A stretch of 52,126 nucleotides of DNA, from the IMG/VR virus record IMGVR_UViG_3300019876_000001, positions 1 through 52,126 of that record. One strand, 5' to 3'. Origin of the DNA: a virus. Taxonomy: Duplodnaviria > Caudoviricetes. The notes under the pieces are model-generated. The model ran no database searches and was not told the DNA's origin. It saw only the letters and a list, made by a program, of their open reading frames with translations. This document shows, piece by piece, positions 3,527 to 45,594 of this stretch (positions are counted from its first letter, which is position 1; each line of letters opens with the position of its first letter). A program made the position numbers and the translations under genes.

Positions 3527-3552
3527 CTGTGTGAGTCACACAGGAGGTTGAC

Positions 3553-3789
3553 ATGAGTTGGCTATCGGAATTCATCAATCGCTTGCTGCCTCCAAAAAGG
3601 ACCTCCAATCCCTCTACCGACGAGGATCTGGATACTGACAACAGCGTGGTCGATCTGTTGAAGTCTCGTGGTCGTGACAGTAGCTTCGAGGCACGGCGTA
3701 AGTTGGCCAGTGACTACGGTCGCCCAAACTACAGTGGCTCGGCAGAAGACAATCAATGGCTTCACAGTGAGATCAAGCGTAGGACCTGA
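3553..3789 (+). CDS. DUF3597-like domain protein
   Basis: AGGAGG RBS; SVVDLLKSRGRDSSFEARRKLA...YSGSAEDNQWL matches the DUF3597 pattern as recalled. Confidence 0.7.
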   Translation: MSWLSEFINRLLPPKRTSNPSTDEDLDTDNSVVDLLKSRGRDSSFEARRKLASDYGRPNYSGSAEDNQWLHSEIKRRT

Positions 3790-4832
3790 TGGGCGTCAAA
3801 GAAGACATCGCCAGACTGCTGTTACGGCGCAGGCAAGAGGCTGGCGATGACGATTACGCACGTACAGGGCAACCTGGCCAACGCGGTGCCCCTGACCTAC
3901 CTTCTAAACGCGACTTGGATAGATTAGGCGCTTCGGAAGGTAGAGACTATATGGATTTCGCTGATCAGTTTGGGTACGAGGCACTAAATCCTGACGCAGG
4001 ACAACCTGGATACGTGCCACTGCCAAGGCCCAGACAGCCAGAACTTGACACGTATCATCCAGAAGGTTCCTCCACGAAGGATGTACCTAGTATTATTGAG
4101 CAAGGTGCTGACTTCCGTCCACAGGATATAGAGCGCATGCAGCCATCAGATGAAGATCTACTGGAGTTGGTTCAACGAGGATTGGCCCCTCCAAAGAAGC
4201 GCTCCGATGCTACGGATTACCTTAAGGAGTTACAACAACCAGATATACCACAGCGTTTAGAACCAATGCATGCTGGCGCGATATACGATGTTGAGCCACA
4301 GCCGTATGAGGAAGGTGAAGAGCCTGAGTATCCTGGGGTGACTCCCCAACCTCCACGCCCATCGACTAAGCGTGATCGGGATATTGAAGATGCTGGCCGC
4401 GTTAGCGATAATCGTAAAGCCGATCCTTATGAAGATCGCGGCATCTTCAACATCAAACTTGACGATGTTCGTGATGCGCTACGTTGGGGCAAAGGTGATG
4501 AGGTAGGCGATGATGCGCTCTATTCTCTTAACGAGTCTGACAATCCGTTCAAAGGTCAAGCTGATGCAGTTTATCAACGCATTAAAGGACTCAATCCCGA
4601 TATGGACGACTTTGAACTGATTAGACAGATACGTCGTAGGATTGGCGGGGCACCGGCACAAAAGCTGTATGATATGATCCGTGACGACGATACGTTCCGT
4701 GCGGCCAATCCTGGTCGTGGCGGTCTATTTGGGCTTGATAAGCCAACACGTGATCCACTCAGTGATGCATATCCACAACGAGGCGGTCGTCAACGTAGAT
4801 CTACATTCGACGAACGCTTCTCAGGAGAATGA
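3789..4832 (+). CDS. Pro/Asp-rich disordered-family protein
   Basis: 347 aa; C-terminal half highly similar to 48963-49637; N-terminal half shares motifs with 2248-3147 and 50939-51634. Confidence 0.8.
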   Translation: MGVKEDIARLLLRRRQEAGDDDYARTGQPGQRGAPDLPSKRDLDRLGASEGRDYMDFADQFGYEALNPDAGQPGYVPLPRPRQPELDTYHPEGSSTKDVPSIIEQGADFRPQDIERMQPSDEDLLELVQRGLAPPKKRSDATDYLKELQQPDIPQRLEPMHAGAIYDVEPQPYEEGEEPEYPGVTPQPPRPSTKRDRDIEDAGRVSDNRKADPYEDRGIFNIKLDDVRDALRWGKGDEVGDDALYSLNESDNPFKGQADAVYQRIKGLNPDMDDFELIRQIRRRIGGAPAQKLYDMIRDDDTFRAANPGRGGLFGLDKPTRDPLSDAYPQRGGRQRRSTFDERFSGE

Positions 4833-5329
4833 CGATGGTCTACGTCAAACCTCGTACTCCTCCACCTGAGCCTAATCAAGCCGACGTATGGCAGGACGCT
4901 GAGAATGATCCATATACCGACATCTACCAACGTCGTCAGTATGACAACCACATGCTACGGGAGTTCCCAGGACCATTCAGGACTGATCCTGGTTTCGAGG
5001 GGCCTCCCGATGATCTACCTGGATTAGCAGATGAAGGACCCGAGGCAGATGGTGAAGCAGGTTTGCAAGGTGTGAAGGATGCACTTTTAGCTAGTGCTCG
5101 ATCTAAGGCCCAGTTTCGCTTCCTACAAGGTCAACGTAACAGCGGCAGCCGCATGACCCCTGATCAAGCAGAGGAAATGTTGGCGCCTCCCGAAGACCCG
5201 TTATCTGGTCAACCCTTTCGCAAGTACTACCAATTCCTTCCTGAGCGTGCCGAGGATGGTCCTGACCCGTTCGAGGATTGGAATAGACAAATGCGTGAAA
5301 TCGCTCGCGCAAGACGTGGAGGTGCATGA
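4829..5329 (+). CDS. Pro/Asp-rich disordered-family protein
   Basis: N-half matches the start of 50223-50939; C-half (ASARSKAQFRFLQ...GPDPFE) matches 49640-49984. Confidence 0.8.
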   Translation: MTMVYVKPRTPPPEPNQADVWQDAENDPYTDIYQRRQYDNHMLREFPGPFRTDPGFEGPPDDLPGLADEGPEADGEAGLQGVKDALLASARSKAQFRFLQGQRNSGSRMTPDQAEEMLAPPEDPLSGQPFRKYYQFLPERAEDGPDPFEDWNRQMREIARARRGGA

Positions 5330-5877: not shown

Positions 5878-5892
5878 CTGTGTGAGTCACAC

Positions 5893-8800
5893 ATGCCGTT
5901 CAAGCTCAAGATCACTGGTCCCGGTGTCAACGACTTCGAGTGGGTCTGGGAGGAAGGACCTACCGAACTTCCTCCTGTTGACCTTCCTGAGTGGCCTGCT
6001 CCTCCTAGAGCAGATCTAGGCCCAGATGAAGTCGTTCCGCCTCCTGACATCACACGGGAAGCGCCTCCTCCTGTTCGCCAACGCATCACAATCACGCCAT
6101 CTCCGCGTGATCCAATCGATGCCGTACTTCCTCCTGCACGACAGTTAGAGCCTCCTGTCGATCCTGTTGAGGCAGCCATACCTACTTCGCCTTTTCCTGT
6201 TCCAGAAGTTCCACAGATGATGGAGCCTCAACAGGACCTTATTGATCAGTTAATGCCAGTGCAGCAGCCACCTCCTCCCGAACCAAGGAACCAACAACCT
6301 GTGCGTCAACTCTACCGTGGTGTGTTGGATGCGCCACAGAACCTATATGATCTAGCTGCGAATGTAATTGAGCCTATGCAGGTTCCTCCTCGTGGTGGTC
6401 AGTCTCTACGTGGTGGGCGTCCTCCATCATCCAAACCATTTCAACCTGCTGCTGACTATCTTCGCAAAGCAGGCTCAAGCGCTCGTCAGCAGATCCTTGA
6501 CCTTACTGGCGCTGAGGAAGTGCCTCCAGATATATTCTCTCGAACAGCTAAGACAGTAGGTGAGAGCATCGTTCCTGGTGGAAAACAAGCTGGTACGATG
6601 AGTGCGATTGTTGGTGGTACTAACGTTGCAGTTAATGAGGCTAGGCGCTTAGCTGCGAACCCTGCTTTTAGTTCAGGTGGCGCCCCTGATTGGATTAGTG
6701 GTGCTCTTGTTTCTCCGGCAGGTGCTGCAGAAGGGCAATTCGATCAACCACAAGGTGAGGTTGTTGTAGAAACTGTGAGTGGTCCTAAAGCCGTGAAGAG
6801 CACAGAGCTTATGGCTGTAGGCACTATTGCGTTGGCAACGATAGGGATGATCTATGGGCCGCGTGTTTATCAGCGTATTGTTGGCTCCGATATTCCTCGT
6901 ATGCGTCCAGTTCGTGAAGCAGCCCCTGGCACAGTGGCTATCAGCAGACCACGTGATCTTGCTCGTACTTATGATGATGCTAATGCCGGCGCGTTTAATA
7001 TTATGCGTCGCGCTGGCGTTGACCCTGTAGCTGCCCGTGAAGTGGAGAACACCTTTCGAATTCAGTCACGCGCAACTGCTAATGCAATGGCTGATAGTGC
7101 AATCAATGCTGGGCGCATGGAGACTCCTGCCTTTACGTTTCAATCAAGGACACCACTGGCTACAATTGCGCCACTAGAGTCGCAGCCTGTACGTGATTAT
7201 TTGCATGTGATGGACACAATCGATGAGATAAAACAACGAAGCTTAATGATGATGAACAGGCGAATTCCTGGAAACGCTGTAGTTCGTGGACTTGACATCG
7301 CTCAGGCAGGTAACGTCAAAAGAGCACTTGAGGCAACTAATCCTGAAGTCGTACAGATCGCTAAGGAATATTGGGACATCACACGCAACCTACGCAATTT
7401 CGAAGTTACGGGTGAATACGCAACTGTGACTCCATCCCTAAACGCTCACTACAAACGTAGTTGGCCGCACGAAGTCCCAATGCATCCTCGTGACCCACAG
7501 CAATCGCATCTCAATGCTCCTGAGCGTGGTAGTGCTACGGAGGCACTTGCAAAGGATATGCGTGAGAGGCTCCGCGCACGTATGGAGAATGAAGCGAAAG
7601 GCAAATACGTTGATGAAGTTCGTAGGGTCATGCCTAATATGTTCGTTCCTGTGACTACAGAACAATTAAAAGACAACAAAAGTTGGGCCAAGAACGTCGT
7701 CGAGTTCAAGCGTCGTGGTGTGACTGAGCGCTACACAACTGATCCGTTGCTCGCTGATATCCTCCGTATGGACCCATACTACATGACCAGTATGGCCGGT
7801 AACTTGTTCTACTCAGCTAAGCGTGCTATCGAAGTTACAACGACAGGTGAATTAGCTCCTTGGTTTGCAGCAACAAGCCTCTATAGAAACTGGGGCATTG
7901 GTAAGATAACGACCGAGCAGGGAATGCAAAGTCCTACCTTTGTAGGATCGCACATGGCAATCCCTCGACAGTTAGGGCCGCAAATGGCCAATTACATCAG
8001 TAAAACACTAGACAATAACAGTGGAGGGTGGCTCACCAATGTCTTTGGCCAAGGTAACATCGATGCTCTCAGCCAGCGACTTGCGCATGCATATCAAAAC
8101 AGCCTATACCACAGATTGGAGACGGTGGGAGGTGGACGTGGATCAATACTTCAACAACAAACAAGTGCTAACAACCGCCTAGCTAATGCAATTCGTGATA
8201 CTACTGGGCCAGCGAAACAGTTCCTTGAAGGGTATAGATCGCTGCTCAATTCCGTGCACAACGCCGCCGCCTTCGACTACGCACGTCGTAACCAAGGACG
8301 TGTCTCGCTCCCAGAATTAGGCAGTCGCGCACGCAATATGACAGGTGATCCTCGCATTGGCGGCGAGTACTTCACAAAGCTTCCTGGAGCTACAAGGCAG
8401 AGCGCTATTCGCTTTGAAGACGATACGAGTCGTGTGAGTCACACACTTGGCCTCGTCAATAAATATCTATATGGTCCTGAAACTGAGTTCGGTCGAACTG
8501 CTATACCTTGGTACAACGCAACCATACAAGGCGTGAAACGTATAGGGTCGGCATATGCAGAGAACCCTGCCAAGTTTACAGCGCGTACATGGCTCTACTA
8601 TGTAGCTCCCACGGCGTCTCTTTACATGGCGTCACAAGCACTTGGAACTGATCCAAACGGTGTGTCGTATACAGATTATGCGATGAACCGGCGGTCGGAA
8701 TACAACAAGATCATGAATTGGTACGTCCCTATTCCTGGTAGACCAGCAGAGGAAGGCATCGAGTTCCCACGCTTCCATGAATTGACTGCTGCTGCTTATA

Positions 8801-9873: not shown

Positions 9874-9881
9874 TGTGTGAC

Positions 9882-10088
9882 TCACGTACCAGGTTTAGAC
9901 AGTTCTCTAAACCACGTATTGGTTGTGTTTATGTGTCCATCTTTCTTCATGCGCTGAAACCATGCAATAGCTTCTTGCATGGAGTTGAACGGACCGAAAA
10001 ATTCAAACCCGTCGATTGGTCCTCCCATAATAATGATGAAACCAGTAGCTTCGCTGGTAGGCATGAACTTAGTATCGACCTTTGGCAT
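9882..10088 (-). CDS. Hypothetical protein
   Basis: GGAGAGG RBS; 68 aa; palindromes on both sides. Confidence 0.6.
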   Translation of the reverse strand: MPKVDTKFMPTSEATGFIIIMGGPIDGFEFFGPFNSMQEAIAWFQRMKKDGHINTTNTWFRELSKPGT

Positions 10089-10116
10089 GGTGTAACCCTC
10101 TCCAACCCTGTGTGAC

Positions 10117-10500
10117 TCACACGTCTTTCTCTCTAATTTCCATTACAGGTGACGGTACTCCATAGTCCGGTGGATCGTATGGGAACCTAATGAAGACTCG
10201 CTGCCCACTTGCAATGTCCCAAGCATTGCCCGCCCCGTCTTTGAACACAGAACAGCACCTTACATTCTGCCATAGGTCCTGGTTGTCTATTGGCTTGACC
10301 CATTCATTATCTTCACCGGTAAGTGGAGTCAGCGACTTGTATGCAATCAGTCGACTGAATACAGGTAGCGCCACTGATACAGCACCTCCACTATCCCATT
10401 GATCCAAGAACTTCTCGATTAACTCGATCATCACCTTGGAGTCTTCCTCGCCAAAGTTGCAGCGCTTGAGCTCATCTTTTGCGTGTTCTATGATGCTCAT
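10117..10500 (-). CDS. Conserved phage hypothetical protein
   Basis: SGG...LTPLTGEDNEW pattern recalled from phage proteins; stop codon lies in the palindrome. Confidence 0.7.
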   Translation of the reverse strand: MSIIEHAKDELKRCNFGEEDSKVMIELIEKFLDQWDSGGAVSVALPVFSRLIAYKSLTPLTGEDNEWVKPIDNQDLWQNVRCCSVFKDGAGNAWDIASGQRVFIRFPYDPPDYGVPSPVMEIREKDV

Positions 10501-11011: not shown

Positions 11012-13506
11012 AGTTTCACCACCTTCATTTCTGACCAGCGATGTAGTCCTTTTGGGTCTTCCACGAACGCCTTTTTCTCGCTGTCCCATAGACTGGGATA
11101 GGACATCTTCAACTCCGCAGGTATGCCCAGCGGTTCTGGTTTCCTCCTGTTGTACACGTCCTGTATAAAGATATCGGACTCAGCATATCGCTTCATTATA
11201 CCAAGACAGGTCTTAGCAACTTTTGGCGTAGTGATTGCCACGAGGTTATCGTGTACATCAATGCCAATTCTCGCTTGTTCAGGCATTGGCCATTTATCAT
11301 CTTCTTCACACTGGTACCAAACCTGGACGATCTTGTCGCCAATTGTAGACTGAGGGTAAAACGCAATGATCGAGTCAAGGACAGAGTCATCAAGTCGTTG
11401 AACAACTTTGAGTCGGCGACCGAAGGGGTTGTAGATCGCACGCGTCTTACGGAAACCTTCTTCCTCAGCGGCCCACCAACGACGGAGTTCTGGAGTAATC
11501 GAGTGATATAACGCAAAGGCACGTGCGCTCTCGTGGTAAGGTAGGCCTGTGACTTGCGAGAGCCTGAAGCGCTCCATTCTGTAATTGAGACCGTGTCTGC
11601 ATCGTTTCGCAATATACCGTTTAGTCGGCCTAAGGTCCTTGTCCCAATCTTTGGTTGGTACTTGATCGTAAGGTATCTTGAACATTTGCGAGGCGAGTGC
11701 CCTGTGACAGTCATAGCTTCCATCCTTCTTTGCTCTAGCGAATTGCTCCTTCCACTCTATTATATCTGCTCTGAACGAGACAACTTGTGCCTCAGCCTGG
11801 GCAAGGTCGATATACAACAACACGCACCCTTTGTCAGCAACGTACATTCCTCTTGCCCGCATGGGCTGGTTTTGTATGTTTCCACCCTCTTTTTCGACAA
11901 GGAGCTGAGAACAAGACAAACGGCCAGGAGCCCTGCTAACTCCAAACTGTTTATTCTCGAACCTAAATCTACCATCTGGGGACACGCGAGACTCGGCATA
12001 TGTTCCACGAAATTTATCCTCCTCTTTGAACTTGTCCAGTGACACAAGCATCTCTTTATCGATTGCCCTCGTCTTAACGTTGGCCATAATCAGTTTGCGA
12101 TTATCTTCGTCGGTGGAGACGCCACGACCCTCTAGCTTCAATCGCGTGAAGAACAAGTCACGCATCTGATGATGTGAATTAGGATTGGGAAAATACTCAG
12201 TATCTCCTGTTGCCTCGTGAACCATATCATAGAATTTCTGCTCAGCTGTATTTACGTCGGCTGTTACCTGCTCAGTAATAATCTCCTTCATACTTAGGTC
12301 CGTGTTGATCCCGTGAACAGTTGAACGATACAAATGTGGATGTGCTCGCATTATGTGATTAAAGAATACTTCATCCATTCCTTGCTTCATGATTTCGTTG
12401 TGTAGCTTCTCGTAACATGCGTATGTCAAAGCTGCATCTTTGCAGTTGTACTTCCAATAGGTGTCGATATCTCCACCGTCACGCCATGAGTCAGCATCTC
12501 CCTTGTAGTATGGGTGTGTCGTGTATTGAGACACAAGGAACGCTAGGCTGTGAGGCAGCAGTGGATACAACGCGTGATGTGCCAATAGAGTATCGAACCA
12601 GAAGTCAGTGCGCAGCAATTGATGCATCCATGAAAAATAAGCATCGAATTGTGCATTCTGCGCTACCATTTTGTGTGAGTCACACAGGTCTTGGATTGCA
12701 TACAGGATGTTGACTTCTTCAGAGAGCGTAAAACGATTGCGCTTGTGATCACGAAAATTAATACACATAGCGCGATGAGGGTTATTCGAAAGGCCGATGC
12801 AAGCCATTTCATAGTTGATAGCCTCTACGTCATACGACACAGGACGCTTCTCACCTTTCAGGTCCTTGATAAAACGCATAGTCTCTTTGTATGTCGGGTT
12901 GATCAATTCTTCGATTAGGTGAGGCTTGAATGTTCCATCTAATAGATGTTTGGCTCGTTGCAGGTCTTTTATAAATATAGGCTCGAAGCGTGGTTCGCGA
13001 TCGCCCATTAGAAACGCAGCATTGAACGTGCATACTGCGTGACCCTTCCTCCCATTCGGCAACTCCAGCGGAAGCACTGACCCTCGCCACTTGGTTATTT
13101 TGTCCAATCCCAAAACAGCCTGAATGGCATAGTTCCCCAAACAGACGATAACCTTCGCGTTCGGAAGCTGCGACAGTTCCCATTGGGTCAAGTCGATCCA
13201 TTTGTCCAACTCATCTTTTAAGACGACGTGCTTCTCGTTGCCTTTGGAAGACAAACTGATCTGCCGTTTGACAACATTAGTTGCGTAGACCGTCTCAGGG
13301 CGCAGACCCCATCTGGCTGCACCTTCCCACATAAGCTTCCCAGAGCCTCCAACAAATGGCCTCTTGCGTCGACATTCAGTTTCTCCAGGACCTTCTCCAA
13401 TAAACACAACCTCGGAGTCGACTGGACCATCTGACAACACCTCCGTTAAGAGTCCCATATCATTAGCGTGGGATCTGAACTGCTCATGTAACTTTTCCAG
13501 CTTCAC
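11008..13506 (-). CDS. polA: Family A DNA polymerase with N-terminal family-4 uracil-DNA glycosylase-like domain and 3'-5' exonuclease (SPO1-type architecture)
   Basis: UDG motif IGEGPG..E.....PFVG.SG; exonuclease SYDVE, NAQFD, YNCKD; motif A IDLAQAEAQV; motif B RYIAKRCRHGLNY; motif C VHDN. Confidence 0.92.
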   Translation of the reverse strand: MKLEKLHEQFRSHANDMGLLTEVLSDGPVDSEVVFIGEGPGETECRRKRPFVGGSGKLMWEGAARWGLRPETVYATNVVKRQISLSSKGNEKHVVLKDELDKWIDLTQWELSQLPNAKVIVCLGNYAIQAVLGLDKITKWRGSVLPLELPNGRKGHAVCTFNAAFLMGDREPRFEPIFIKDLQRAKHLLDGTFKPHLIEELINPTYKETMRFIKDLKGEKRPVSYDVEAINYEMACIGLSNNPHRAMCINFRDHKRNRFTLSEEVNILYAIQDLCDSHKMVAQNAQFDAYFSWMHQLLRTDFWFDTLLAHHALYPLLPHSLAFLVSQYTTHPYYKGDADSWRDGGDIDTYWKYNCKDAALTYACYEKLHNEIMKQGMDEVFFNHIMRAHPHLYRSTVHGINTDLSMKEIITEQVTADVNTAEQKFYDMVHEATGDTEYFPNPNSHHQMRDLFFTRLKLEGRGVSTDEDNRKLIMANVKTRAIDKEMLVSLDKFKEEDKFRGTYAESRVSPDGRFRFENKQFGVSRAPGRLSCSQLLVEKEGGNIQNQPMRARGMYVADKGCVLLYIDLAQAEAQVVSFRADIIEWKEQFARAKKDGSYDCHRALASQMFKIPYDQVPTKDWDKDLRPTKRYIAKRCRHGLNYRMERFRLSQVTGLPYHESARAFALYHSITPELRRWWAAEEEGFRKTRAIYNPFGRRLKVVQRLDDSVLDSIIAFYPQSTIGDKIVQVWYQCEEDDKWPMPEQARIGIDVHDNLVAITTPKVAKTCLGIMKRYAESDIFIQDVYNRRKPEPLGIPAELKMSYPSLWDSEKKAFVEDPKGLHRWSEMKVVKL

Positions 13507-14072: not shown

Positions 14073-14093
14073 TTGGGTTCTCCTCTGTGTGAG

Positions 14094-14519
14094 TCACACA
14101 ATCTCTAACAGCTGCTCTACGCTAAGGACGATGTTCTGCGCCAACAGGTACATAAGGTCAGGTTCTTGTTCTTCTGGCATGAATATGATCAATCTTTTAT
14201 TGGCACCAACAAACCATCCCGCTTCCATGTGGGCACTTCGGCCACACGGTAGTACCAATACGCAGGTATCTGCCCATTGCATTCCACGGAAGTCTGATAG
14301 ATAGCCATACGACGATATCTCGCTAGTCGTTAACTTATCTATGTACTCTTCCCGTGTCCACTTCTGCCAATTTGGATCAATCTCTTTCCAGTGAAAACCG
14401 GCGTAGCCTTCACGAGGGTTTCTGAAGTTGAATATCTCATGCCCTCCTGCCTTCAGGCTGTCTACCACTTTATAAAAGTACGAATTGCGCCAACTCGAAG
14501 CTACGTAAATCCTACTCAT
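14094..14519 (-). CDS. Nucleoside 2-deoxyribosyltransferase-like protein
   Basis: IYVASSWRN, D...M.WAD..VLVLPCGRSAHMEAGW; AAGGGAG RBS before MSRIY. Confidence 0.75.
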   Translation of the reverse strand: MSRIYVASSWRNSYFYKVVDSLKAGGHEIFNFRNPREGYAGFHWKEIDPNWQKWTREEYIDKLTTSEISSYGYLSDFRGMQWADTCVLVLPCGRSAHMEAGWFVGANKRLIIFMPEEQEPDLMYLLAQNIVLSVEQLLEIV

Positions 14520-14616
14520 CGTACCATCTCCCTTATCCACATGATTAACGGAACACTTAGTCCGCCAAGAACACCACCAGCAACTGCCTGCACGATTGTT
14601 ATTCTCCAATCACTCT

Positions 14617-15870: not shown

Positions 15871-15871
15871 T

Positions 15872-16474: not shown

Positions 16475-16533
16475 CTCATATCTCCCTTGTGTTAATGGGC
16501 GCCGTGTGTGACTCACACAGCGCCCGGCTTCAG

Positions 16534-17175: not shown

Positions 17176-17397
17176 TTAATACTTCGAACTCTTCAGTTCG
17201 AGTACCTTACCTTGTTTGGGTGTCGCCTCTGGCTGCTTACAGTCTATGTGACTCACACGATCCCCATCTATACGAAACCCATGCTCAGGCTTTACGTTGT
17301 TGCCACATACTGAACATTTCTCGTATATCACTTCCTCAGCCCTCATTTTGGAACCTCTAACTTTTCGTAGCCATTTTGCTCCCATTGTGAGTACCAC
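17176..17397 (-). CDS. Small Cys/His hypothetical protein (true start probably near 17346)
   Basis: CSVC...H...HIDC; contains a near-copy of the palindrome. Confidence 0.45.
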   Translation of the reverse strand: MVLTMGAKWLRKVRGSKMRAEEVIYEKCSVCGNNVKPEHGFRIDGDRVSHIDCKQPEATPKQGKVLELKSSKY

Positions 17398-18203: not shown

Positions 18204-18260
18204 AGCACTCTCCGTAGTACCAACAACACGTCTTCTCGCAGCGACTAAGCTCTGTGTGAC

Positions 18261-18446
18261 TCACACAAGGCCCTTCTCTTTTGCCCACCACTCCTTCACC
18301 TCTACCTGCTTCCCGTCTATGTCTATCTCTTTGATCACCGATCGTGGTATCCATTTCTCTTCCCCATCCATCGCAAACAACACGGCACCCTCATCTTCGA
18401 AGTCGCGCAGCACTGACTCGAATGCTAACTCAGCATATGACTCCAT
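18261..18446 (-). CDS. Hypothetical protein
   Basis: GAGGGAG RBS; EKWIPRSVI...WWAKEKGLV; stop in palindrome. Confidence 0.65.
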   Translation of the reverse strand: MESYAELAFESVLRDFEDEGAVLFAMDGEEKWIPRSVIKEIDIDGKQVEVKEWWAKEKGLV

Positions 18447-19957: not shown

Positions 19958-19973
19958 TGTGTGACTCACACGG

Positions 19974-20742: not shown

Positions 20743-20750
20743 TGTGTGAC

Positions 20751-20960
20751 TCACACAGGTTTGAAGCCAGTCAACTCTTTATGTGCATTAACATCATATG
20801 TGAGATAGTGCTTATCGTTAGAACAATCCACATACAACGCCCCATCGTTAGGGTCCTGCTTAACCTCCAACACCTCACCTTTGTGTAGACAAACCCCTGC
20901 GTGCATATTGGTCTCCAAGACTTCCAACTTATCGCCCAGCTTTACGTTCTGGTAGTTCAT
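20751..20960 (-). CDS. Hypothetical protein
   Basis: 69 aa; stop in palindrome. Confidence 0.6.
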   Translation of the reverse strand: MNYQNVKLGDKLEVLETNMHAGVCLHKGEVLEVKQDPNDGALYVDCSNDKHYLTYDVNAHKELTGFKPV

Positions 20961-21651: not shown

Positions 21652-21964
21652 TAGGACACCCAGGGACCTTACACACAGGAGGCTTAGTCCTTACATCACA
21701 CATAGGGCATTCTGTGTGACTCACACGGCCTAAGAACATCCCAAGCGCATCATGTAGAGCCTTAGCCTTATCCATTACCTTCGTTACGTTCTTCCTAAAG
21801 TACATATTCTCGTTTTCGTAATCACTAATGGCTAGCTCTATTGTACTAAATCTATTCTTACATCCAAGACACTCCCGCCGACGACGAATGCATCCATTCA
21901 TCGTCGGGCGGGAGTCTGTGACCTTAGTGGCCATATCGCCACAACTGGGACAAGGCAACTTCAT
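21560..21964 (-). CDS. NrdR-type N-terminal zinc-ribbon protein (no ATP cone)
   Basis: CPSCG....KVTDSR.....[18 protein letters not shown]. Confidence 0.75.
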
Positions 21965-22249: not shown

Positions 22250-22453
22250 GGGATAGTCCCTTCTAAGGTTTGACACAACTCGTTAATTTTTTTTTCGCGT
22301 GTGACTCACACAGTCCAGGTCGGGGGGAGGTGTTGGGGAACCTTATGTGGGATACGAGCCTCCCCCCTTCCATCGACGGACCATTACAGCCCGTTTTGCA
22401 TGATATGTCTCCTCTGTTGTCCTGAGTTCTTTGATCTCACACTCTACATCACG

Positions 22454-23252: not shown

Positions 23253-23427
23253 TTGACACTCCCTTTGTGTGACTCGCTGCTAACGAATGTCTTCGTGACT
23301 CTGTGTGACTCACACGCTGTTTGCACTTCTCTTCTGCTCTACAGTAGTACTTATGATCAGTCGTCGCCTTGAAGTTGCTCCTGACTAATGAGCCATAGCC
23401 GCACTTATAACAATTCATGACGCCCAT
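23188..23427 (-). CDS. Small Cys-rich hypothetical protein
   Basis: GGAGG RBS; CYKC...C....C; contains the palindrome (RVSHT). Confidence 0.45.
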   Translation of the reverse strand: MGVMNCYKCGYGSLVRSNFKATTDHKYYCRAEEKCKQRVSHTESRRHSLAASHTKGVSNDQPKHEQAFWRDNSRWGQDK

Positions 23428-23737: not shown

Positions 23738-24061
23738 CTATTGTCCATTGATTATCTCCACACTTTTGCCCCATACACACCTTTCACCCAACTCTTTCAT
23801 TCCAATCCATCCATTCACATACAAGGCGCCACTCCTATCCAGATACACCTCTAAATCCTCATCTGAACACGCCCTGAGTATCTCTACAAACTCCTTCCTC
23901 CTTGCACTACTACCTTCTAACTTTAACAACTTAATCAACACAACGAACGCGTACTCTAGGCTCCTTCTACTGTGTGACTCACACGCTGCCTCTATGTGTG
24001 TCCTGAGACGCATAAACAGATCATTACGTCGCCTCTCCTGCTCTGTCCTGAGAGATACCAT
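23738..24061 (-). CDS. Early hypothetical protein
   Basis: AGGAGG RBS; contains the palindrome at 23972. Confidence 0.6.
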   Translation of the reverse strand: MVSLRTEQERRRNDLFMRLRTHIEAACESHSRRSLEYAFVVLIKLLKLEGSSARRKEFVEILRACSDEDLEVYLDRSGALYVNGWIGMKELGERCVWGKSVEIINGQ

Positions 24062-24139: not shown

Positions 24140-24163
24140 CGGGGTGGCCTAATCGCCACCCCG
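24140..24163. terminator. GC-rich hairpin after the 302-aa gene (terminator-like)
   Basis: CGGGGTGGC-ctaatc-GCCACCCCG abutting the palindrome at 24163; GTTTT follows shortly on the minus strand. Confidence 0.5.
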
Positions 24164-24176
24164 TGTGACTCACACT

Positions 24177-25085: not shown

Positions 25086-25157
25086 TGCTCCCTTAGCGGG
25101 CTTGATTGCCCGTCACTGGCGCTGTGTGACTCACACAGCGCCAGAAACTGACAACCC

Positions 25158-25513: not shown

Positions 25514-25837
25514 CTAGGCTCCTAACTCACTTGCCGGATCGAAATCTCTAGGCCACACAATCACATCGTTACGCTCGACTATTCTATAGTTACCTCTTGG
25601 CCTATTCGCTAGACACGTCTCGTATGCCTCTTTCGCATCTTCTAGCGTCAAGTATGGACTGCTATCGTACCATTGCAAGTCCACACTCCTATACTGTAGC
25701 CAGTATCTTGGAACCATCGGAGTCATTTCCTTCTCCCTTCGTTTCCAACAATCATGTTGTCGCATATCCATTTTGCATTTGCAATCTCTTTTCGTGTGAC
25801 TCACACACTTTTCGATCACGTTATTGTGATCAGACAC
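25514..25837 (-). CDS. Early hypothetical protein (start uncertain)
   Basis: C-terminal YWLQYR...EDAKEAY...YRIVER resembles small early phage proteins. Confidence 0.45.
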   Translation of the reverse strand: MSDHNNVIEKCVSHTKRDCKCKMDMRQHDCWKRREKEMTPMVPRYWLQYRSVDLQWYDSSPYLTLEDAKEAYETCLANRPRGNYRIVERNDVIVWPRDFDPASELGA

Positions 25838-26104: not shown

Positions 26105-26567
26105 CCAAAACCGCTAACTTTTTATCTTGGTCAACATCCCGAGCCGCAGGCACGGAATGTTGCCCATTGCTATCACCTCTCTTGACTCCTAGCGATTGTT
26201 GTGTGAGTCACACACTTTCACTTAGGGAATAGTGCTATCACCAGGCGTGAAAGACTTATACTGATAGCAAAGTGATGCGCCTCGCCTATGATAATTATCA
26301 CCAATCAATTAACGCGCAGTGATTATGCTCGGAGTTAATGTGTATCAATTCTCTTTCACTTCTAGTCGCGTGCCTTTGGCGCATAGTGAATTGACTCTAA
26401 GTACAATCAAATACAACCCCCGATATCCCCCCTTATCCACAACTTGGTAGAATGGTAGGGTTGACTTGCCGGGGGGCTCGCGAAGCGAGACGTGCCACGA
26501 TCGGTTTTAATCGTTCACGTTTTCGTGATGGGTTCGTGATCGGTCCAGTGCACTACTATTGTAAGGC

Positions 26568-26596
26568 TTGACTGTGTGACTCACACGCTCTAGACT
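26568..26596 (+). promoter_or_regulatory. sigma70-type promoter whose spacer contains the palindrome
   Basis: TTGACT-gtgtgactcacacgctc (17 nt)-TAGACT. Confidence 0.65.
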
Positions 26597-26602
26597 CGAT
26601 CC

Positions 26603-26700
26603 ATGCCAAGCTGAGTGATGACCTGTACCATTACTTCAGCCCCCCAACGGCATTAGCCCGTCTCCTCTCCATCGCAAGGTCGAGAGGGACGGGCTTTTTC
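26603..26700 (+). ncRNA. Predicted ~100-nt small RNA
   Basis: Between the promoter and terminator; hairpin GCTGAGTGATG...CATTACTTCAGC; no ORF. Confidence 0.45.
26655..26700 (+). terminator. Rho-independent terminator-like hairpin
   Basis: AGCCCGTC...GACGGGCT followed by TTTT. Confidence 0.6.
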
Positions 26701-26851
26701 TGTGTGAGTCACACGCCAGCGGCAATGTGAGAGGGGTATGGTCAGATTGTAGGTGATATGGGCCTATATCCGCGCCTTCGGCGGTACGGATAGAGGCCCA
26801 AGAGGAGAGAGTGCGGCTTTGGAGGTAACGTGGAACGTTATGGGATGTCAA

Positions 26852-27382: not shown

Positions 27383-27493
27383 TAGGCCGCACTCCTATGT
27401 GACTCACACGATATATGGGTGAATGTTGTGCTTGCGCACACCATCCACAGCCCCCCATCACGCGGTATATGGCCCTCCGGGGAACGAAGATAG

Positions 27494-27522
27494 ATAATAA
27501 CAGGGTTTTTACCACCTGTCAA
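27494..27522 (-). promoter_or_regulatory. Leftward sigma70 promoter
   Basis: Minus strand TTGACA-17 nt-TATTAT with an upstream T-tract. Confidence 0.75.
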
Positions 27523-27570
27523 GTAAAAAATTCGAGCCATATGTGATGGTGTGTGACTCACACAGCGCCA

Positions 27571-27599
27571 TTGACAGGGATTGGGTAAAGTGGTAAGGT
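27571..27599 (+). promoter_or_regulatory. Rightward sigma70 promoter for packaging/structural genes
   Basis: TTGACA-17 nt-TAAGGT, back-to-back with the leftward promoter. Confidence 0.65.
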
Positions 27600-27775
27600 G
27601 GTTGCGTTCGATGGGCGGGCCGCACTCACCCATCGGGAGCAGAGATCGAGATGACACATCGACGGGTCCCCAAAGAAACCGTGGCTGGATTACTGGCCGT
27701 CTCTGTAAGGGGTGTGGCAGAAATGTCACACCCCGACCATTTAGATTTAGTGTGTGACTCACACAGGAGAAGATC

Positions 27776-29169: not shown

Positions 29170-29195
29170 TTGTGTGACTCACACAGGAGATTGAT

Positions 29196-30985: not shown

Positions 30986-31057
30986 TCGTGATTGGACTTG
31001 TATTCTACCACCCGGCCATGTTGGTCCGTGTGTGAGTCACACAACGAGGAGAGTGAA

Positions 31058-31907: not shown

Positions 31908-32510
31908 ATGGACGCGCGTTTGCAGGCTGCGAAGGCTATTATCGACATGGAAGCTCGTCGTGATAGTCGTGGACATTTGGCCATTTACGCCCTACCCCCG
32001 AATGATGGAGGTGGAAAATTCGAGGTGGCAGGTATCAACGAAAAATACAATCCAGCCGAATGCGCGCGTCTTATTGAATTGATCCATGCCAAGAAATTTG
32101 ATGAGGCTGAGGCTTATGCGCAAGAAGTAATTGCGCGAGACACAGACGGTGCTGAACTCTGGCATTTGAAAGCCATTAAGTTCGGTGAGGATGGTGAAAC
32201 TTTAGGTGATCCCGGTGTGCAATTCTTTTTGCGCGATAGTATCTTTAATCGTGGCCTACATGGTGCTGCTCGTATTTTGCAGCTTGCTGTGGGAGTTGAC
32301 GATGACGGCATTGTTGGGCCTGTTACTTGTAAGGCTGTTGAGGAGCGTGAGCCGACGGCACTTCTTAAATCGTTGCGTGAGTCTAGAGAATTTTATGAGC
32401 GTCACGTTGTTGGTTATCGCGCGAACTTCTGGAAGGGGTTGGTCAATCGATGGAATAAGGTCTTGAAGATCGCACAAAATATGGATCAAGGCGATACACG
32501 GATCGTGTGA
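31908..32510 (+). CDS. Endolysin, GH108-like with peptidoglycan-binding C-terminus
   Basis: E...DGGG...AGI, D..FN.G, LQLAVGVDDDGIVGPVT, FWKGLVNR. Confidence 0.85.
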   Translation: MDARLQAAKAIIDMEARRDSRGHLAIYALPPNDGGGKFEVAGINEKYNPAECARLIELIHAKKFDEAEAYAQEVIARDTDGAELWHLKAIKFGEDGETLGDPGVQFFLRDSIFNRGLHGAARILQLAVGVDDDGIVGPVTCKAVEEREPTALLKSLRESREFYERHVVGYRANFWKGLVNRWNKVLKIAQNMDQGDTRIV

Positions 32511-32532
32511 GTCACACACTGAGGAGGTTACC

Positions 32533-33538: not shown

Positions 33539-33556
33539 CCGTGTGAGTCACACACC

Positions 33557-35824: not shown

Positions 35825-36938
35825 TGATGCTAATCAAGACCTCGTTTTCGACAACCTTGGACTCTCCCAACAAGATTTGGGAATGGGCGGTAACGAAGGT
35901 GATTTCAATGATCCTGGTGATGATGACGACGCTGGATTAGGAGATCAACAGGATGATTTGCAACTTGATGACGGTGACGATGATGGAGATAGTGATCCAT
36001 TTGCGTTGCGTGATGATGATCTGCCTCAAGATCGCCGTGTGAGTCACACAGAAGGTGATCGCCGACAACAGCAGCAACAGCGGCGCGAGCCTCGGCCACT
36101 TCCAAAGGATGCAAAGGTCCGTCCAGACAAGAACGGCAATTTGCTCAATGAAAAGGGCGAAATCGTTGCTCGGGCGGGTCGTGAGGCTCGATATTACACA
36201 GCTAGGGAAAAGGCTAAAAAGGACTTGGTGTCGCGCGATAGCCAGCTTCGAGATACTGCGGGGCGTTTAGGTCGTGTTACGCAGATTGCGCGAGAGCTTA
36301 AGGCCACTGTTGACGGGTACGCTAATCAGTTTAAGGCCATTAAGGACATGGGATTTACTGCCGATGATCAAGTGGCAGCCATGAACTTGTTCTCTCAGAT
36401 GAGAAAAGACCCGAAAGGGACCTTGACAAAGCTGTTGACTCGTGCAGCGGCAAATGGTATAACTGTAGATGGTCAATCAGGTCAGCCACAACAAGCGCAG
36501 ATCGCAGATGTTGTTAAGGGCCTGTTAGATGAGCAACTGAAGCCGTTTAAAGAAAACCTGACTGCTAATCAAGAGCGTGAACGTGCGGAACAGCAACGAC
36601 GCAATGATGCAGCGGCAGTGGATAATGAAGTTGGCCAGTTCTTTGGTCGTAACCCGGACGCTGTGCCCTACGCTCCGGTGTTTGCAAGGGTGTTACGTGA
36701 CCCAGCTTTCTCTGGCATGTCGCTAGGTGAAATCTACGCACGTATCTTACAAAACCAGTCTAGGGGCGGTCGCCGTCCTTCGCTGCGTGATCCCGGTCGA
36801 AATGGCCGAACTCCCTCTCGTAGGGGAAGTCCACCGAATGGTCGATCTGCTCCGTTTAACGGCGGGACAGAAATCGCTAATGTGAACGAGACTTACGACT
36901 CGATCATCAATAGCGTGCTCGACGAAAACCGTGTGTGA
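35796..36938 (+). CDS. Capsid scaffolding protein
   Basis: Acidic disordered N-terminus plus coiled coils, between portal and MCP. Confidence 0.7.
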   Translation: MAPRSSNFNSDANQDLVFDNLGLSQQDLGMGGNEGDFNDPGDDDDAGLGDQQDDLQLDDGDDDGDSDPFALRDDDLPQDRRVSHTEGDRRQQQQQRREPRPLPKDAKVRPDKNGNLLNEKGEIVARAGREARYYTAREKAKKDLVSRDSQLRDTAGRLGRVTQIARELKATVDGYANQFKAIKDMGFTADDQVAAMNLFSQMRKDPKGTLTKLLTRAAANGITVDGQSGQPQQAQIADVVKGLLDEQLKPFKENLTANQERERAEQQRRNDAAAVDNEVGQFFGRNPDAVPYAPVFARVLRDPAFSGMSLGEIYARILQNQSRGGRRPSLRDPGRNGRTPSRRGSPPNGRSAPFNGGTEIANVNETYDSIINSVLDENRV

Positions 36939-36966
36939 GTCACACAGATAAAGGACGGGATACGCA

Positions 36967-38421: not shown

Positions 38422-38475
38422 CGTGTGAGTCACACAACTCTATATAACTGTCCAACAGAAACAAGGATATAGAAC

Positions 38476-39174: not shown

Positions 39175-39204
39175 GTCGTGTGAGTCACACAAGGGGCTGC
39201 TCCT

Positions 39205-41708: not shown

Positions 41709-41725
41709 GTGTGTGAGTCACACAG

Positions 41726-43369: not shown

Positions 43370-43385
43370 CGTGTGAGTCACACAG

Positions 43386-45341
43386 ATGACACTCTCGTAT
43401 ACTTTACATTTTAAGTTTGGTATCCCAGACTTTACGACTGGGCCATGGCACGCTGATTGGGAAGCGCTCGTCCGTAAAATAGATGAAATTTTGTACGAAG
43501 TCGCAGTAGCGAATAACGCAACTGTTTGGACAAATTCAACAGCGTACATCATTGGCAATATCGTAATCAGTCCTCAAGATGGAACGATGTGGATTGCGTC
43601 TGTGGCGCATACTAGTGCTGCATCGCCTACAACGTTCTCTGCCGATCGCCTTGCGCATCCCACGTTTTGGACATCGTTTGGTGTGGGTGGTGACCTTACA
43701 GCAATTGAGGCGTTGACTGGTACTGGTTTTCCTACACGTGTCGCTGATGACGTGTGGGCCTTACGCACTATGAGCATTACCGGTTCTGGCATTCTCATCT
43801 CAAATGGTAATGGTGTTGCGGGCAATCCTGTGCTTTCGCTTGACGGTGATTTACAGGCAATTTCGTTACTTGGAACTACAGGTATACCTGTTCGTACTGC
43901 TGCAGATACTTGGGCATTGCGTTTGACTGTTCAGCCGTTGGCAGGTATTACAATCACGAATGCCGATGGCGTTCTAGGCAACATAACGTTTGCTCTTGCG
44001 AATGACTTGAGTGCGCTCGAAGCATTGGCATCGTCGGGCTTCTCTGCTCGTACAGGCTCAGACACTTGGGCTATTCGGACACTTCAACAACCTGCTGCCG
44101 GTATCACAATTACCAATCCTGCCGGCACCGCTGGCGATCCGACTTTTGTGCTTGCGAATGACCTAGGAGCGATTGAGGCACTTAACAGTAATGCTCTTTT
44201 GGCACGTACTGGAACTGATACTTGGGCAGCACGTACAATCACGGGACCAGCCGCTGGCATTACTGTATCGAATGGCAGTGGTGTCGGGGGCAATCCCACA
44301 CTTGCGCTCGCTAATGATTTATCGGCGCTCGAAGCTCTTGCGTCATCAGGCTTCTCGGCACGTACGGGAACTGACACATGGGCAATTCGGACGCTTGTGG
44401 CGCCTGCTGCTGGACTTACGATATCTAACAACGATGGCGTGGCAGGCAATCCAACGTTCGCGTTCGCCAATGATCTAGCAGCTATTGAAGCGCTTAATAC
44501 TAATGGGATGCTCGCTCGTACCGGGACCGATACATGGGCTGCGCGAACAATTACAGGTACAGGCGCCGAGATTACTGTCACGAACGGTGATGGTGTTGGT
44601 GGCAATCCTACCCTCTCTCTCCCGACAGCATTGACGTTCACAGGAAAGACCGTTACGGACGGTACGTATGTCAACGATCTTCATACAGGCTATTCGCAAT
44701 ATGCTGAGATCGCGTCGCCTGCAAATCCCGCAGCAGACAATATTAGGGTGTTCGCGAAAGACGTTGCTGGTGTAACGCATCTATTTACACGCAATAGTGC
44801 TGGCGGCGAAGTTGATATGTCTGCTGCCGGTGGCGCTTCGTCGAGTGGATCTAGGGTACTACTGAATACATTAACGGCTGCGGGCTCTGCATCGCTGGCC
44901 GACACCACGAGCCTTACTGCTACTTACAAGCGCTATGAGATCGTATTTGAGGGATTAATCCACGCGACTGCGGGCGGCGCTTTCAGGTTTAGGGTCAACC
45001 AAGGTGGCGTCCAGACCACTGGCTATAAGGGTAGGAATATTCGAGGGACTACTAGCTCAGTATCAACGACAGAAATACCTCTTCAAGCAGGTGCTGTCGG
45101 TGAGACGACGGAGCCGGGACTTTCCGCTGTCTTATACATTGATAATCCAAGTGCATCAATCAAACACATGGTCTATGGAAACGGTGGAATAAATTCTAGT
45201 TCCGGCGGAGCCGGTACAGCAGAGACCTTGACATTTGGTGGATGGTTCGATACCGCCGGAGTTGTGACTGGCTTCGAAGTGACCAGTTCGGTAGGTAACA
45301 TCACCAGCGGCGTGATCAAGGTCTTCGGAATTGTGAATTAG
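43386..45341 (+). CDS. Tail fibre 2 with ~6 tandem 52-aa repeats
   Basis: N-terminal anchor paralogous to fibre 1; repeated LANDL.A.EAL...G..ARTG.DTWA.RT. Confidence 0.8.
   Translation: MTLSYTLHFKFGIPDFTTGPWHADWEALVRKIDEILYEVAVANNATVWTNSTAYIIGNIVISPQDGTMWIASVAHTSAASPTTFSADRLAHPTFWTSFGVGGDLTAIEALTGTGFPTRVADDVWALRTMSITGSGILISNGNGVAGNPVLSLDGDLQAISLLGTTGIPVRTAADTWALRLTVQPLAGITITNADGVLGNITFALANDLSALEALASSGFSARTGSDTWAIRTLQQPAAGITITNPAGTAGDPTFVLANDLGAIEALNSNALLARTGTDTWAARTITGPAAGITVSNGSGVGGNPTLALANDLSALEALASSGFSARTGTDTWAIRTLVAPAAGLTISNNDGVAGNPTFAFANDLAAIEALNTNGMLARTGTDTWAARTITGTGAEITVTNGDGVGGNPTLSLPTALTFTGKTVTDGTYVNDLHTGYSQYAEIASPANPAADNIRVFAKDVAGVTHLFTRNSAGGEVDMSAAGGASSSGSRVLLNTLTAAGSASLADTTSLTATYKRYEIVFEGLIHATAGGAFRFRVNQGGVQTTGYKGRNIRGTTSSVSTTEIPLQAGAVGETTEPGLSAVLYIDNPSASIKHMVYGNGGINSSSGGAGTAETLTFGGWFDTAGVVTGFEVTSSVGNITSGVIKVFGIVN
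43690..44625 (+). repeat. 156-nt tandem coding repeats in fibre 2
   Basis: ANDL codons recur every 156 nt (~43998, 44154, 44310, 44466). Confidence 0.85.
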
Positions 45342-45355
45342 ACAGGAGAAGAGAG

Positions 45356-45568
45356 ATGGCAAAACATCACATGGCGACGTACGTAACCGTTCCCGAAGCG
45401 GAAGGTGAGAATGCTTTGCGTCAATTAGTTACCGAGCGTTTGGGGGGCGGTGATGGGATCACGGTCATAAGTTTGGACTTGGTAAATGGCCAATTGTGTG
45501 GTACATTTACACGTGATTGGGAAACGCCTGATCCTAAGCCTCCCAAGGCGCCCGTAGTCAAAAAGTAG
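45356..45568 (+). CDS. Hypothetical protein
   Basis: AGGAG RBS; 70 aa. Confidence 0.65.
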   Translation: MAKHHMATYVTVPEAEGENALRQLVTERLGGGDGITVISLDLVNGQLCGTFTRDWETPDPKPPKAPVVKK

Positions 45569-45594
45569 CTGTGTGAGTCACACGGAGAACGAAC

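Follow-up and report, generated by a model that had tools for sequence, protein, structure and literature searches.

Copies of a short palindrome, GTGTGASTCACAC, are scattered along the genome of a virus of the Caudoviricetes (IMG/VR record IMGVR_UViG_3300019876_000001), and the question raised by this DNA is what keeps them so evenly apart. The window, i.e., the whole stretch analyzed, is the complete record, a single contig of 52,126 bp, referred to as G000 where it must be told apart from its relatives (G001 to G014). It holds 39 exact copies, every one perfectly palindromic, versus none in 100 shuffles, together with 5 degenerate copies: two with a central A (GTGTGAATCACAC, at 48737 and 49987), two with one mismatch (17246 and 27397), and one with two mismatches (9875). 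Placement statistics in G000 count 43 copies. A sequence-only reading of this DNA had taken the absence of gaps above ~2.56 kb to mean that selection keeps a site within a maximum distance. Here, the evenness is upheld and the fixed distance is not; with about even chances, the copies may be binding sites of a dimeric protein whose arrangement is selected to cover the chromosome within the tolerance of coding sequence.

A palindrome shared across a phage family

Relatives were collected by a major capsid protein search of IMG/VR; of the 207 stretches confirmed to encode such a protein, the best 80 were retained (77 to 99% identity), and 13 near-complete relatives (record-estimated 95 to 100% complete) and 1 partial relative were fetched. 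The relatives, which form a family of uncultured soil phages, measure 43.2 to 48.3 kb. The motif family NTNTGANTCANAN occurs in all 14 of them; the near-complete genomes have 25 to 46 copies each and the partial genome has 16, and the family as a whole has roughly one copy per 1.2 kb in genomes of ~45 kb. A degenerate scan for the core returned 13 to 46 copies in each of ten relatives versus 0 to 1 for a reversed control pattern. The arms differ by lineage (GTGTGA, GTTTGA, or hybrids such as GTGTGA-S-TCATAC, where S is G or C) and all four bases occur at the center; copies within one genome share the same lineage-specific variant. Across 452 sites, only positions -2 to +14 carry information, with no further conservation within ±60 nt, and the site is symmetric over 15 bp, Y-GT[G/T/A]TGA-N-TCA[C/A/T]AC-R.

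The palindrome could in principle be read as a hairpin or as double-stranded DNA. Arm position 3 is polymorphic in 9 genomes, and in 8 of these, matched arms occur at or below the frequency expected from independence; the only significant Fisher test for arm matching (G014, p = 0.008) points toward fewer matched arms. Because the arms vary independently, pairing between them is not under selection; this speaks against a hairpin in RNA or single-stranded DNA and in favor of half-sites in a duplex. The palindrome is therefore best read, from these comparisons, as acting as duplex DNA with two half-sites.

Gene strands for the orientation of the motif were set by block segmentation. Where the start codon lies 11 to 20 nt away, the central base is G in 60 sites and C in 65 across 15 genomes, and this balance, found where a separate ribosome-binding sequence exists, indicates that no orientation is required; the best reading of the core function is a symmetric protein-binding site. 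At sites 0 to 3 nt from a start codon, the center is G in 70 of 76 cases (15 genomes), which puts GAG 6 to 9 nt before the start. On the sense strand of G000, the center is G in 36 copies, C in 5, and A in 2. This bias is largely accounted for by side constraints, namely (i) avoidance of GAWTC (W being A or T) and (ii) use of GAG as a makeshift ribosome-binding site. GAWTC is observed 18 times versus 89 expected in G000, 2 versus 71 in G004, 17 versus 84 in G006, and 0 versus 86 in G009, and in these genomes the center is almost only S; in G001, G002, and G007, W is common at the center and GAWTC is not avoided. The avoidance suggests hosts with a restriction system cutting GAWTC, of the TfiI type. 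Within the window, there are no GAWTC sites in 1-45465, and all 20 lie in a tail block at 45466-52126 that is described below. Every copy contains GANTC, the core of epigenetic sites that CcrM-like enzymes methylate and GcrA reads; the search pattern demands it, and all arms detected de novo have GA at their ends. Neither a methyltransferase nor a GcrA gene was found among the phage proteins scanned.

Conventional expression signals were also sought. Across the 452 sites there is neither a -10/-35 partner at a fixed distance nor a T-run signal, and a lax scan for intrinsic terminators was passed by only 2 of the 43 copies in G000 (25794 and 26201). Promoters of T7-type or N4-type RNA polymerases do not fit either: no RNA polymerase family was found, the motif has no orientation, and its arms lack covariation. 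The DNA-level role put forward by the sequence-only reading is thus retained as far as a duplex role would fit better than a classical promoter or translation signal, given the lack of orientation, hairpin behavior, and promoter partner, whereas the distance rule attached to it is not.

Spacing along the chromosome and copies inside genes

The gaps on which the distance rule was built were reproduced: 2563 bp (10110-12673), 2552 bp (5880-8432), 2533 bp (39178-41711), and 2496 bp (33541-36037), followed by 2419, 2351, and 2200 bp, with none above 2563 bp within 3529-45583. Outside that range, a gap of 3909 bp between exact copies (47728-51637) is bridged only by the two centre-A copies. When the genome is taken as a 45,465-bp circle without the tail block, 37 sites remain and the largest gap is still 2563 bp. 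The rough estimate that random placement would leave gaps of 4 to 5 kb also holds, the median largest gap being 5.0 to 5.4 kb for 39 to 43 uniform sites; under uniform placement, the probability of a largest gap of at most 2563 bp is ≤2e-5 (n = 41 to 43). Gene boundaries were taken into account with a null in which junction sites were re-dealt over gene junctions and in-gene sites over coding sequence. This permutation, which had been suggested as a check, reached 2563 bp in 0 of 20,000 and 0 of 50,000 trials for G000, with P = 0.0016 to 0.0017 when junction sites alone were re-dealt and P = 0.0001 to 0.00016 when in-gene sites alone were re-dealt. The evenness of G000 exceeds that given by gene lengths. 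An all-random P of ≤0.0006 was also obtained in G001, G002, G004, G006, G011, and G012.

Each relative was scanned with its own position weight matrix, at ~0.5 false positives per genome. The largest gaps are 2589, 2594, 3588, 2791, 3728, 2911, and 3702 bp in G001 to G007 and 3609, 2996, 4513, 2142, 2382, and 3890 bp in G008 to G013, so that 6 of the 13 near-complete relatives exceed 3 kb by a wide margin (3588 to 4513 bp), the very outcome that the sequence-only reading had named as refuting its rule. Even close relatives differ, with 2142 bp in G011 versus 3890 bp in G013 and 2382 bp in G012 versus 4513 bp in G010, and the 4.5-kb gap of G010 runs over six consecutive genes that have free junctions and no site. 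Nor does the probability of a site at a junction rise toward 2.5 kb. Occupancy is 0.08 within 400 bp of the previous site and ~0.4 beyond 800 bp, after which it stays flat (0.35 at 2.0 to 2.4 kb, 0.53 at 2.4 to 3.0 kb, and 0.28 beyond 3 kb). Together, the breaches in relatives and the flat occupancy show that there is no hard cap, and we propose that the 2.56-kb "cap" of G000 reflects a soft coverage pressure plus gene lengths, not a fixed maximum distance.

A copy was called in-gene when at least 80 codons are open on both sides. By this rule, 40 of the 43 copies in G000 are not in-gene, and an upstream stop codon lies within -7 to +5 nt of 22 of these 40; in 6 of the 22, the TGA of the motif itself is that stop codon. 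Same-strand junctions with a spacer of at least 13 nt are occupied in 24 of 38 cases, versus 2 of 32 overlapping or abutting junctions. The distance from the motif to the next start is bimodal, 0 to 3 or 11 to 15 nt, extending to 60 nt. Six copies lie in two non-coding stretches at ~26 to 27.8 kb that separate the early and late blocks, and copies sit just upstream of, or in the leader after, each of the three best sigma-70-like promoters (27522, 24125, and 22482), the best of the scanned region being 27522 (11 of 12 consensus positions), in a 393-bp divergent region. Homologous junctions are often occupied in several relatives.

The three in-gene copies of G000, at 8432 (1326-aa open reading frame [ORF]), 12673 (DNA polymerase), and 36037 (scaffold ORF), lie within long open frames as had been claimed; relatives have 3 to 8 such copies each. 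The polymerase copy uses the same codons, L-(C/F)-(D/E)-S-H, in 12 of 13 genomes and sits in the middle of the exonuclease domain. Across lineages with 54 to 74% protein identity, the codons of this site are frozen (TGT in 8 of 8, TCA in 12 of 12, and CAC in 11 of 12), whereas flanking Ala, Ile, and Gln codons vary freely. This conservation of synonymous positions points to selection acting directly on the DNA; the in-gene copies are real and are selected at that level. An internal start after the polymerase copy was considered and rejected, since M follows the site in G000 and G002 alone, its place being taken by V, I, or L in the other genomes.

One check suggested with the sequence-only reading was whether homologous long genes in relatives carry in-frame copies at different positions. 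The largest gene (1304 to 2155 aa) does, with 0 to 4 copies per genome at about 10 alignment positions, several of them common to groups of genomes; the polymerase does not, its copy being one inherited position. The copies in this giant gene are located at borders of conserved blocks or in Pro-rich linkers. In the alignment column of copy 8432, there are copies in G002, G004, G006, and G012 and degenerate or decayed ones in G005 and G007, in an alignment reading that leaves out G008. A fusion origin of the giant gene was rejected, as no separate gene matches a segment of the giant protein at E < 1e-6 in the 15 genomes, apart from contig-wrap pieces and one short N-terminal paralogue. The scaffold copy did not keep its standing as a filler of a long gene: it is in-gene in G000, G002, G004, G006, and G007, whereas G001, G003, G008, G011, and G013 have an ordinary site at the portal/scaffold junction in the corresponding position. 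Pooled over 14 genomes, 62 of 77 in-gene copies fall in junction-to-junction intervals of at least 2.5 kb, which make up 39% of the sequence, and single in-gene copies are central (mean minimum fraction of 0.363 versus 0.297 by chance, with 0 of 20,000 simulations reaching the observed value), statistics that count homologous sites repeatedly, so that with ~12 site groups, by a rough grouping, the centrality becomes borderline.

A proposed coverage array weighed against other explanations

We infer the binding protein, its phage origin, and the selection for coverage, and the mechanism may be pictured as follows. A symmetric, sequence-specific protein, most likely a dimer, would read the self-contained palindrome (~15 bp) as duplex DNA through its two half-sites, each independent of the other. 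If the function needs this protein all along the chromosome, selection would favor coverage, and sites would settle where coding sequence tolerates 13 fixed bases: at the majority of junctions with a spacer, in clusters in the non-coding control region, and at a few positions in the longest genes. A site squeezed between genes could then double as punctuation, its TGA serving as a stop and its central GAG as a makeshift ribosome-binding sequence. Such an array would account for the filled spacers, the non-coding clusters, the frozen copies in long genes, the excess evenness, and also the breaches in relatives.

As to the process served, our guess would give the largest share, still short of half, to a locally acting or spreading protein (protection, compaction, or clamp control of the KorB/ParB type), a slightly smaller one to transcription control by roadblock or operator, and the rest to priming or nicking. 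A more specific version, which we hold only tentatively and consider unlikely, is that the palindromes are loading sites for a phage protein from a novel family whose spreading or sliding reaches no further than 1 to 1.5 kb, or sites of priming or nicking, with every part of the chromosome kept within reach. If this were true, selection would be strong enough to freeze 13 bases of the polymerase and to reseed the linkers of the giant gene, and a lytic phage would follow a genome-wide coverage rule.

Several observations weigh against the coverage array. Gaps of 3.6 to 4.5 kb in 6 of 13 relatives make coverage selection soft at best, junction occupancy is flat (0.28 to 0.53) beyond 800 bp, and the all-random P is 0.02 to 0.35 in G003, G005, G007 to G010, G013, and G014; the repeated counting of homologous in-gene sites belongs here as well. 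In G000, a central G dominates even beside a separate ribosome-binding sequence. In G005 and G014, the asymmetric hybrid GTGTGA-S-TCATAC is favored, mostly in the sense orientation, which a simple homodimer does not predict. Finally, Pfam and PHROGs searches (80 and 66 proteins) returned no ParB-type protein, repressor, or RNA polymerase; the structure model of a conserved early protein of 302 aa matched no solved structure in either Foldseek (E ≤ 0.001) or VIA-align (Z ≥ 5); and the model of a 128-aa protein (predicted local distance difference test [pLDDT] of 49) is too poor for a structure search.

That 302-aa early protein (24177-25085, minus strand) is kept in 13 of 14 relatives, and its AlphaFold model has a pLDDT of 80.5 and a predicted template modeling score of 0.70; an ESM Atlas search matched it to hypothetical phage proteins only. 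A PDB sequence search with the giant, 302-aa, and 189-aa proteins gave nothing meaningful. No ParBc domain was found among 80 proteins at E ≤ 1e-3 or among 10 conserved proteins at E ≤ 1, the latter threshold giving a weak ribbon-helix-helix-like match (TacA/NikA) at 15872-16156 and weak coiled-coil matches at 20431-20754. Neither an integrase nor an immunity repressor was recognized by Pfam or PHROGs, among proteins many of which have no assigned family. A 134-aa protein (21560-21964, minus strand) with an NrdR-type zinc ribbon (Pfam E = 3e-15) and no ATP-cone domain was rejected as the binder, being present only in G000 and G002.

A true maximum-distance rule, in which a process tracking along DNA with limited reach (lagging-strand priming, programmed nicks, stepwise entry, or stalling of a translocating nuclease) needs a site at least every ~2.6 kb and in-gene copies are recruited into long genes to supply it, would explain why the in-gene copies of G000 occupy its three longest junction intervals (4230, 3977, and 3392 bp), bringing both halves below 2563 bp, and why its four largest gaps are nearly equal (2496 to 2563 bp). 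G001, G002, G011, and G012 likewise stay at or below 2.6 kb, the 6.5-kb gene of G011 holds four in-gene copies, and no primase was recognized among the proteins scanned. Nevertheless, we consider this rule improbable, as motif-bearing relatives have gaps of 3588, 3609, 3702, 3728, 3890, and 4513 bp, with maxima ranging from 2.1 to 4.5 kb within a clade; the six site-free genes of G010, the flat occupancy, and the single inherited position of the polymerase copy point the same way, and clusters 128 to 400 bp apart in non-coding DNA would be purposeless under a spacing rule. Pure gene punctuation, i.e., a stoperator-like operator or roadblock of a phage transcription regulator, with spacing set by gene and operon sizes and in-gene copies as internal regulatory sites, fares somewhat better and is still doubtful. 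It is consistent with the 40 of 43 copies that are not in-gene, the 22 of 40 near an upstream stop codon, the bimodal start distance, the copies adjoining the three best promoters, and the shared occupancy of homologous junctions. However, a downstream promoter would not fit at sites 0 to 3 nt from a start codon, no partner stands at a fixed distance in the 452 sites, and orientation preference vanishes where a separate ribosome-binding sequence is present. It also does not predict a frozen mid-polymerase copy with no conserved start codon after it, in-gene copies enriched in long stretches and near their middle, or the evenness by which G000 and roughly half its relatives surpass the random-junction null, and no repressor, integrase, or prophage relatives were found in the searches made here.

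Two further explanations were weighed. An RNA or single-strand hairpin (5-bp stem and 3-nt loop), serving as a processing site, stability element, or N4-type hairpin promoter, would fit the perfect palindromes of G000, the three copies extended into longer GC-rich palindromes, and the position of sites in transcribed junctions. Yet hybrids with mismatched arms (GTGTGAGTCAAAC and GTATGAGTCAAAC, for example) reach the frequency expected from independence in 8 of 9 polymorphic genomes, with G014 even preferring them, T-runs are missing, only 2 of 43 copies pass even the lax terminator scan, and no virion RNA polymerase was recognized, which together leave the hairpin as the least probable of the explanations weighed. 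A selfish or recombination-linker repeat, in which the 13-mer spreads or persists by mediating short-homology exchange of cassettes between co-infecting relatives, is also very improbable. In its favor, genes for a Sak4-like protein and an exonuclease are present, a comparison with G002 places two G000-specific insertions (genes at 46548-46766 and 49640-49984) immediately next to a copy, giant-gene copies lie at borders of homology blocks, and all copies of a genome share one lineage-specific variant. The inserted genes, though, have a copy on one side only, the block shared with G002 (84 to 89% identity) ends at 45338 and 50556, away from copies, and the frozen synonymous positions of the polymerase point to direct selection.

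The copies in their genome

The copies are collected in Table 1. G000 is organized in a plus-strand block at 1-10.1 kb, a minus-strand block at 10.1-27.9 kb, and a plus-strand block from 27.9 kb on, and the genes recognized by Pfam and PHROGs encode a family-A DNA polymerase, a Dda-like helicase, a Sak4-like ATPase, an exonuclease, the large terminase, the portal, and the major capsid protein.

Table 1. Copies of the palindrome in the window; the strand of the palindrome is given as "." throughout the feature list
Feature	Position	Remark
Junction copy	106..118	11 nt upstream of ATG at 130
Junction copy	1074..1086	stop 2 nt before, ATG 2 nt after
Junction copy	2044..2056	stop 1 nt before, ATG 1 nt after
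Junction copy	3529..3541	stop 2 nt before; AGGAGG and ATG 11 nt further
Junction copy	5880..5892	touches ATG of 1326-aa gene
In-gene copy, 1326-aa gene	8432..8444	RVSHT, aa 847
Two-mismatch copy	9875..9887	end of 1326-aa gene
Junction copy	10110..10122	convergent meeting point of plus and minus gene blocks
In-gene copy, DNA polymerase	12673..12685	L-C-D-S-H, aa 275-279 (LCDSHK), minus-strand gene
Junction copy	14087..14099	TGA is stop of upstream minus-strand gene
Junction copy	16506..16518	within longer GC-rich palindrome
One-mismatch copy	17246..17258	in 239-bp spacer
Junction copy	18254..18266	
Junction copy	19959..19971	ATG 1 nt after
Junction copy	20744..20756	ATG 1 nt after
Copy inside NrdR-type zinc ribbon ORF (21560-21964)	21714..21726	not in-gene by 80-codon rule
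Copy in 258-bp spacer	22299..22311	downstream of sigma-70-like promoter at 22482
Early-region copy	23303..23315	amid small ORFs with uncertain limits
Early-region copy	23972..23984	close to 5' end of small ORF
Junction copy	24163..24175	followed by terminator-like hairpin and promoter-like site at 24125
Junction copy	25124..25136	within 29-nt perfect palindrome
Copy	25794..25806	5' end of ORF 25514-25837
Three copies (26201, 26574, 26702)	26201..26714	no ORF of at least 60 aa between 25949 and 26635
Three copies (27397 with one mismatch, 27551, 27752)	27397..27764	393-bp divergent non-coding region
Junction copy	29172..29184	
Junction copy	31030..31042	followed by ribosome-binding sequence, ATG at 31058
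Junction copy	32505..32517	TGA is stop of upstream gene
Junction copy	33541..33553	ahead of portal gene
In-gene copy, scaffold ORF	36037..36049	RVSHT, ~aa 113 of longest frame
Junction copy	36933..36945	ahead of major capsid gene; TGA is scaffold stop
Junction copy	38423..38435	
Junction copy	39178..39190	
Junction copy	41711..41723	stop 2 nt before, ATG 2 nt after
Junction copy	43371..43383	stop 1 nt before, ATG 2 nt after
Six tail-block copies (45571, 46769, 47728, 48737 and 49987 with central A, 51637)	45571..51649	

Some copies are embedded in larger symmetric sequences. At 16499-16527 and 25116-25144, the motif stands within longer GC-rich palindromes built as GGCGCT-motif-AGCGCC, with no T-run after either; that around the copy at 25124 is a perfect 29-mer. 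The copy at 27551 has only the left flank.

The tail block (45466-52126, 6.66 kb) repeats positions 1-147 at its own beginning (45466-45612, 99.3% identity), and past these 147 nt it is 67 to 82% identical to the head region (compared with 1-10200); parts of it are 84 to 89% identical to G002, in the shared block that ends at 45338 and 50556. Judged by these identities, it is a divergent second copy of a tail-end module, with a history unlike that of the rest of the window. Without it, G000 measures 45,465 bp, inside the size range of the relatives; hence either the block was acquired very recently, or two co-occurring strains were joined in the assembly. An ORF cut by the window end (51682-52125) has 62% identity over 148 aa to the N-terminus of the giant protein of G002 and also matches the first 26 aa of the giant protein of G000 itself (5893-5970).

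Other genes of the window are noted here in their own right. The DNA polymerase (11008-13506, minus strand) has an N-terminal UDG-superfamily domain (Pfam PF03167, E = 1e-17) preceding the 3'-5' exonuclease domain. A 127-aa protein (10117-10500, minus strand) has a Pfam match to Tad3, an inhibitor of type I Thoeris defense (E = 2e-23), and tblastn found it in 0 of 14 relatives. At 13503-14609 (minus strand), a gene for a deoxynucleoside monophosphate kinase-like protein adjoins one for a nucleoside deoxyribosyltransferase-like protein (PHROGs E = 4e-23 and 4e-49), a pair that may hint at a modified base; among the 14 relatives, the deoxyribosyltransferase-like gene has a tblastn match in G004 only.

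The family lies far from cultured phages in the searches made: megablast with 20 kb of G000 gave 0 matches, and tblastn with the major capsid protein gave no close relative, with hits of ≤24% identity (Mx8, Brucella phages, and a Bradyrhizobium phage). A capsid scan of 185,579 genomes, one per prokaryote species, turned up no prophage relatives. Seven soil DNA sequencing runs contain the G000 stretch or part of it, all stored as assembled contigs, and none of the runs listed is an RNA run.

Comparable elements and significance

The nearest described thing to the G000 motif is the palindrome of Cluster O mycobacteriophages, a 17-bp sequence, TGTTCGGNNNCCGAACA, present in 34 copies (Cresawn et al. 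2015, PMC4351075). According to the part of that paper that deals with it, its arms are invariant and its center is free, copies are spread genome-wide with about one-third in coding regions and with no orientation, and its role is unexplained (PMC4351075). Like it, the G000 motif has inverted-repeat arms, a variable center, at least 30 copies, a mix of intergenic and in-gene positions, and no orientation. The two differ in sequence, hosts, and arm layout (7-N3-7 in Cluster O versus 6-N1-6 here). For Cluster O, that part describes neither an analysis of spacing nor copies frozen inside genes, nor any double duty as stop codon or ribosome-binding sequence; it also mentions the stoperators of Cluster A mycobacteriophages (PMC4351075). 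Compared with Cluster O, the G000 family offers a motif that varies by lineage across a diverse uncultured family.

Other dispersed elements share single traits with this palindrome. The stoperators of Cluster A (L5 gp71) are 13-bp, asymmetric, transcription-oriented sites of temperate phages bound by the immunity repressor. Like them, the G000 site recurs dozens of times in short spaces between genes along the genome and may be bound by one protein; unlike them, it is symmetric, and its orientation bias is limited to sites 0 to 3 nt from a start. It also differs from the start-associated sequences of Cluster K, which are asymmetric, stand at a fixed distance from the start, and contain the ribosome-binding sequence, in being palindromic, in its bimodal distance, and in its in-gene copies. 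KorB operators (OB) of IncP plasmids and ParB parS sites are palindromes of 13 to 16 bp (OB with a 6-S-6 layout) in about a dozen copies, dispersed across a mobile genome or gathered near a control region, with some in genes. A dimer recognizes them in double-stranded form and then moves along the DNA, by sliding or spreading, for kilobases. A mode of this kind would make coverage matter, but no ParB-family protein was detected among the proteins of G000, and its copies per kb are much higher. Uptake signal sequences (USS) of Haemophilus and DNA uptake sequences (DUS) of Neisseria occur about once per kb, with over-even spacing, intergenic inverted pairs, and some copies in frames. Unlike these chromosomal, asymmetric sequences read in DNA uptake, the G000 palindrome is symmetric and lies in a phage, and we know of no phage link for USS or DUS. 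The localized single-strand nick sites of T5, tf, and phiKMV-like phages are strand-specific nicks at a conserved motif in virion DNA. A full-text literature search for the exact motif strings gave, among the matches listed, only eukaryotic primers or genes and no phage, and a literature search on conserved intergenic palindromes in phages returned nothing specific. To our knowledge, dispersed palindromes have been seen in few cultured phages (e.g., those of Cluster O) and have never been explained.

For such elements, the G000 family supplies far more comparative material, in the form of lineage drift, copies frozen in essential genes, and a measurable, soft evenness signal, which together point to a protein that would act along the whole chromosome. 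The handles gained are a probe of 15 bp, the possibility of knocking out in-gene copies by synonymous changes, and several conserved early proteins with no assigned function, encoded at 10757-11011, 15872-16156, 16534-17103, 19974-20252, 20431-20754, 21214-21651, 24177-25085, and 27776-28162. In this phage family, one short element may thus have been shaped by three unrelated pressures: its own function, the avoidance of GAWTC restriction sites, and its use as a stop or ribosome-binding sequence.

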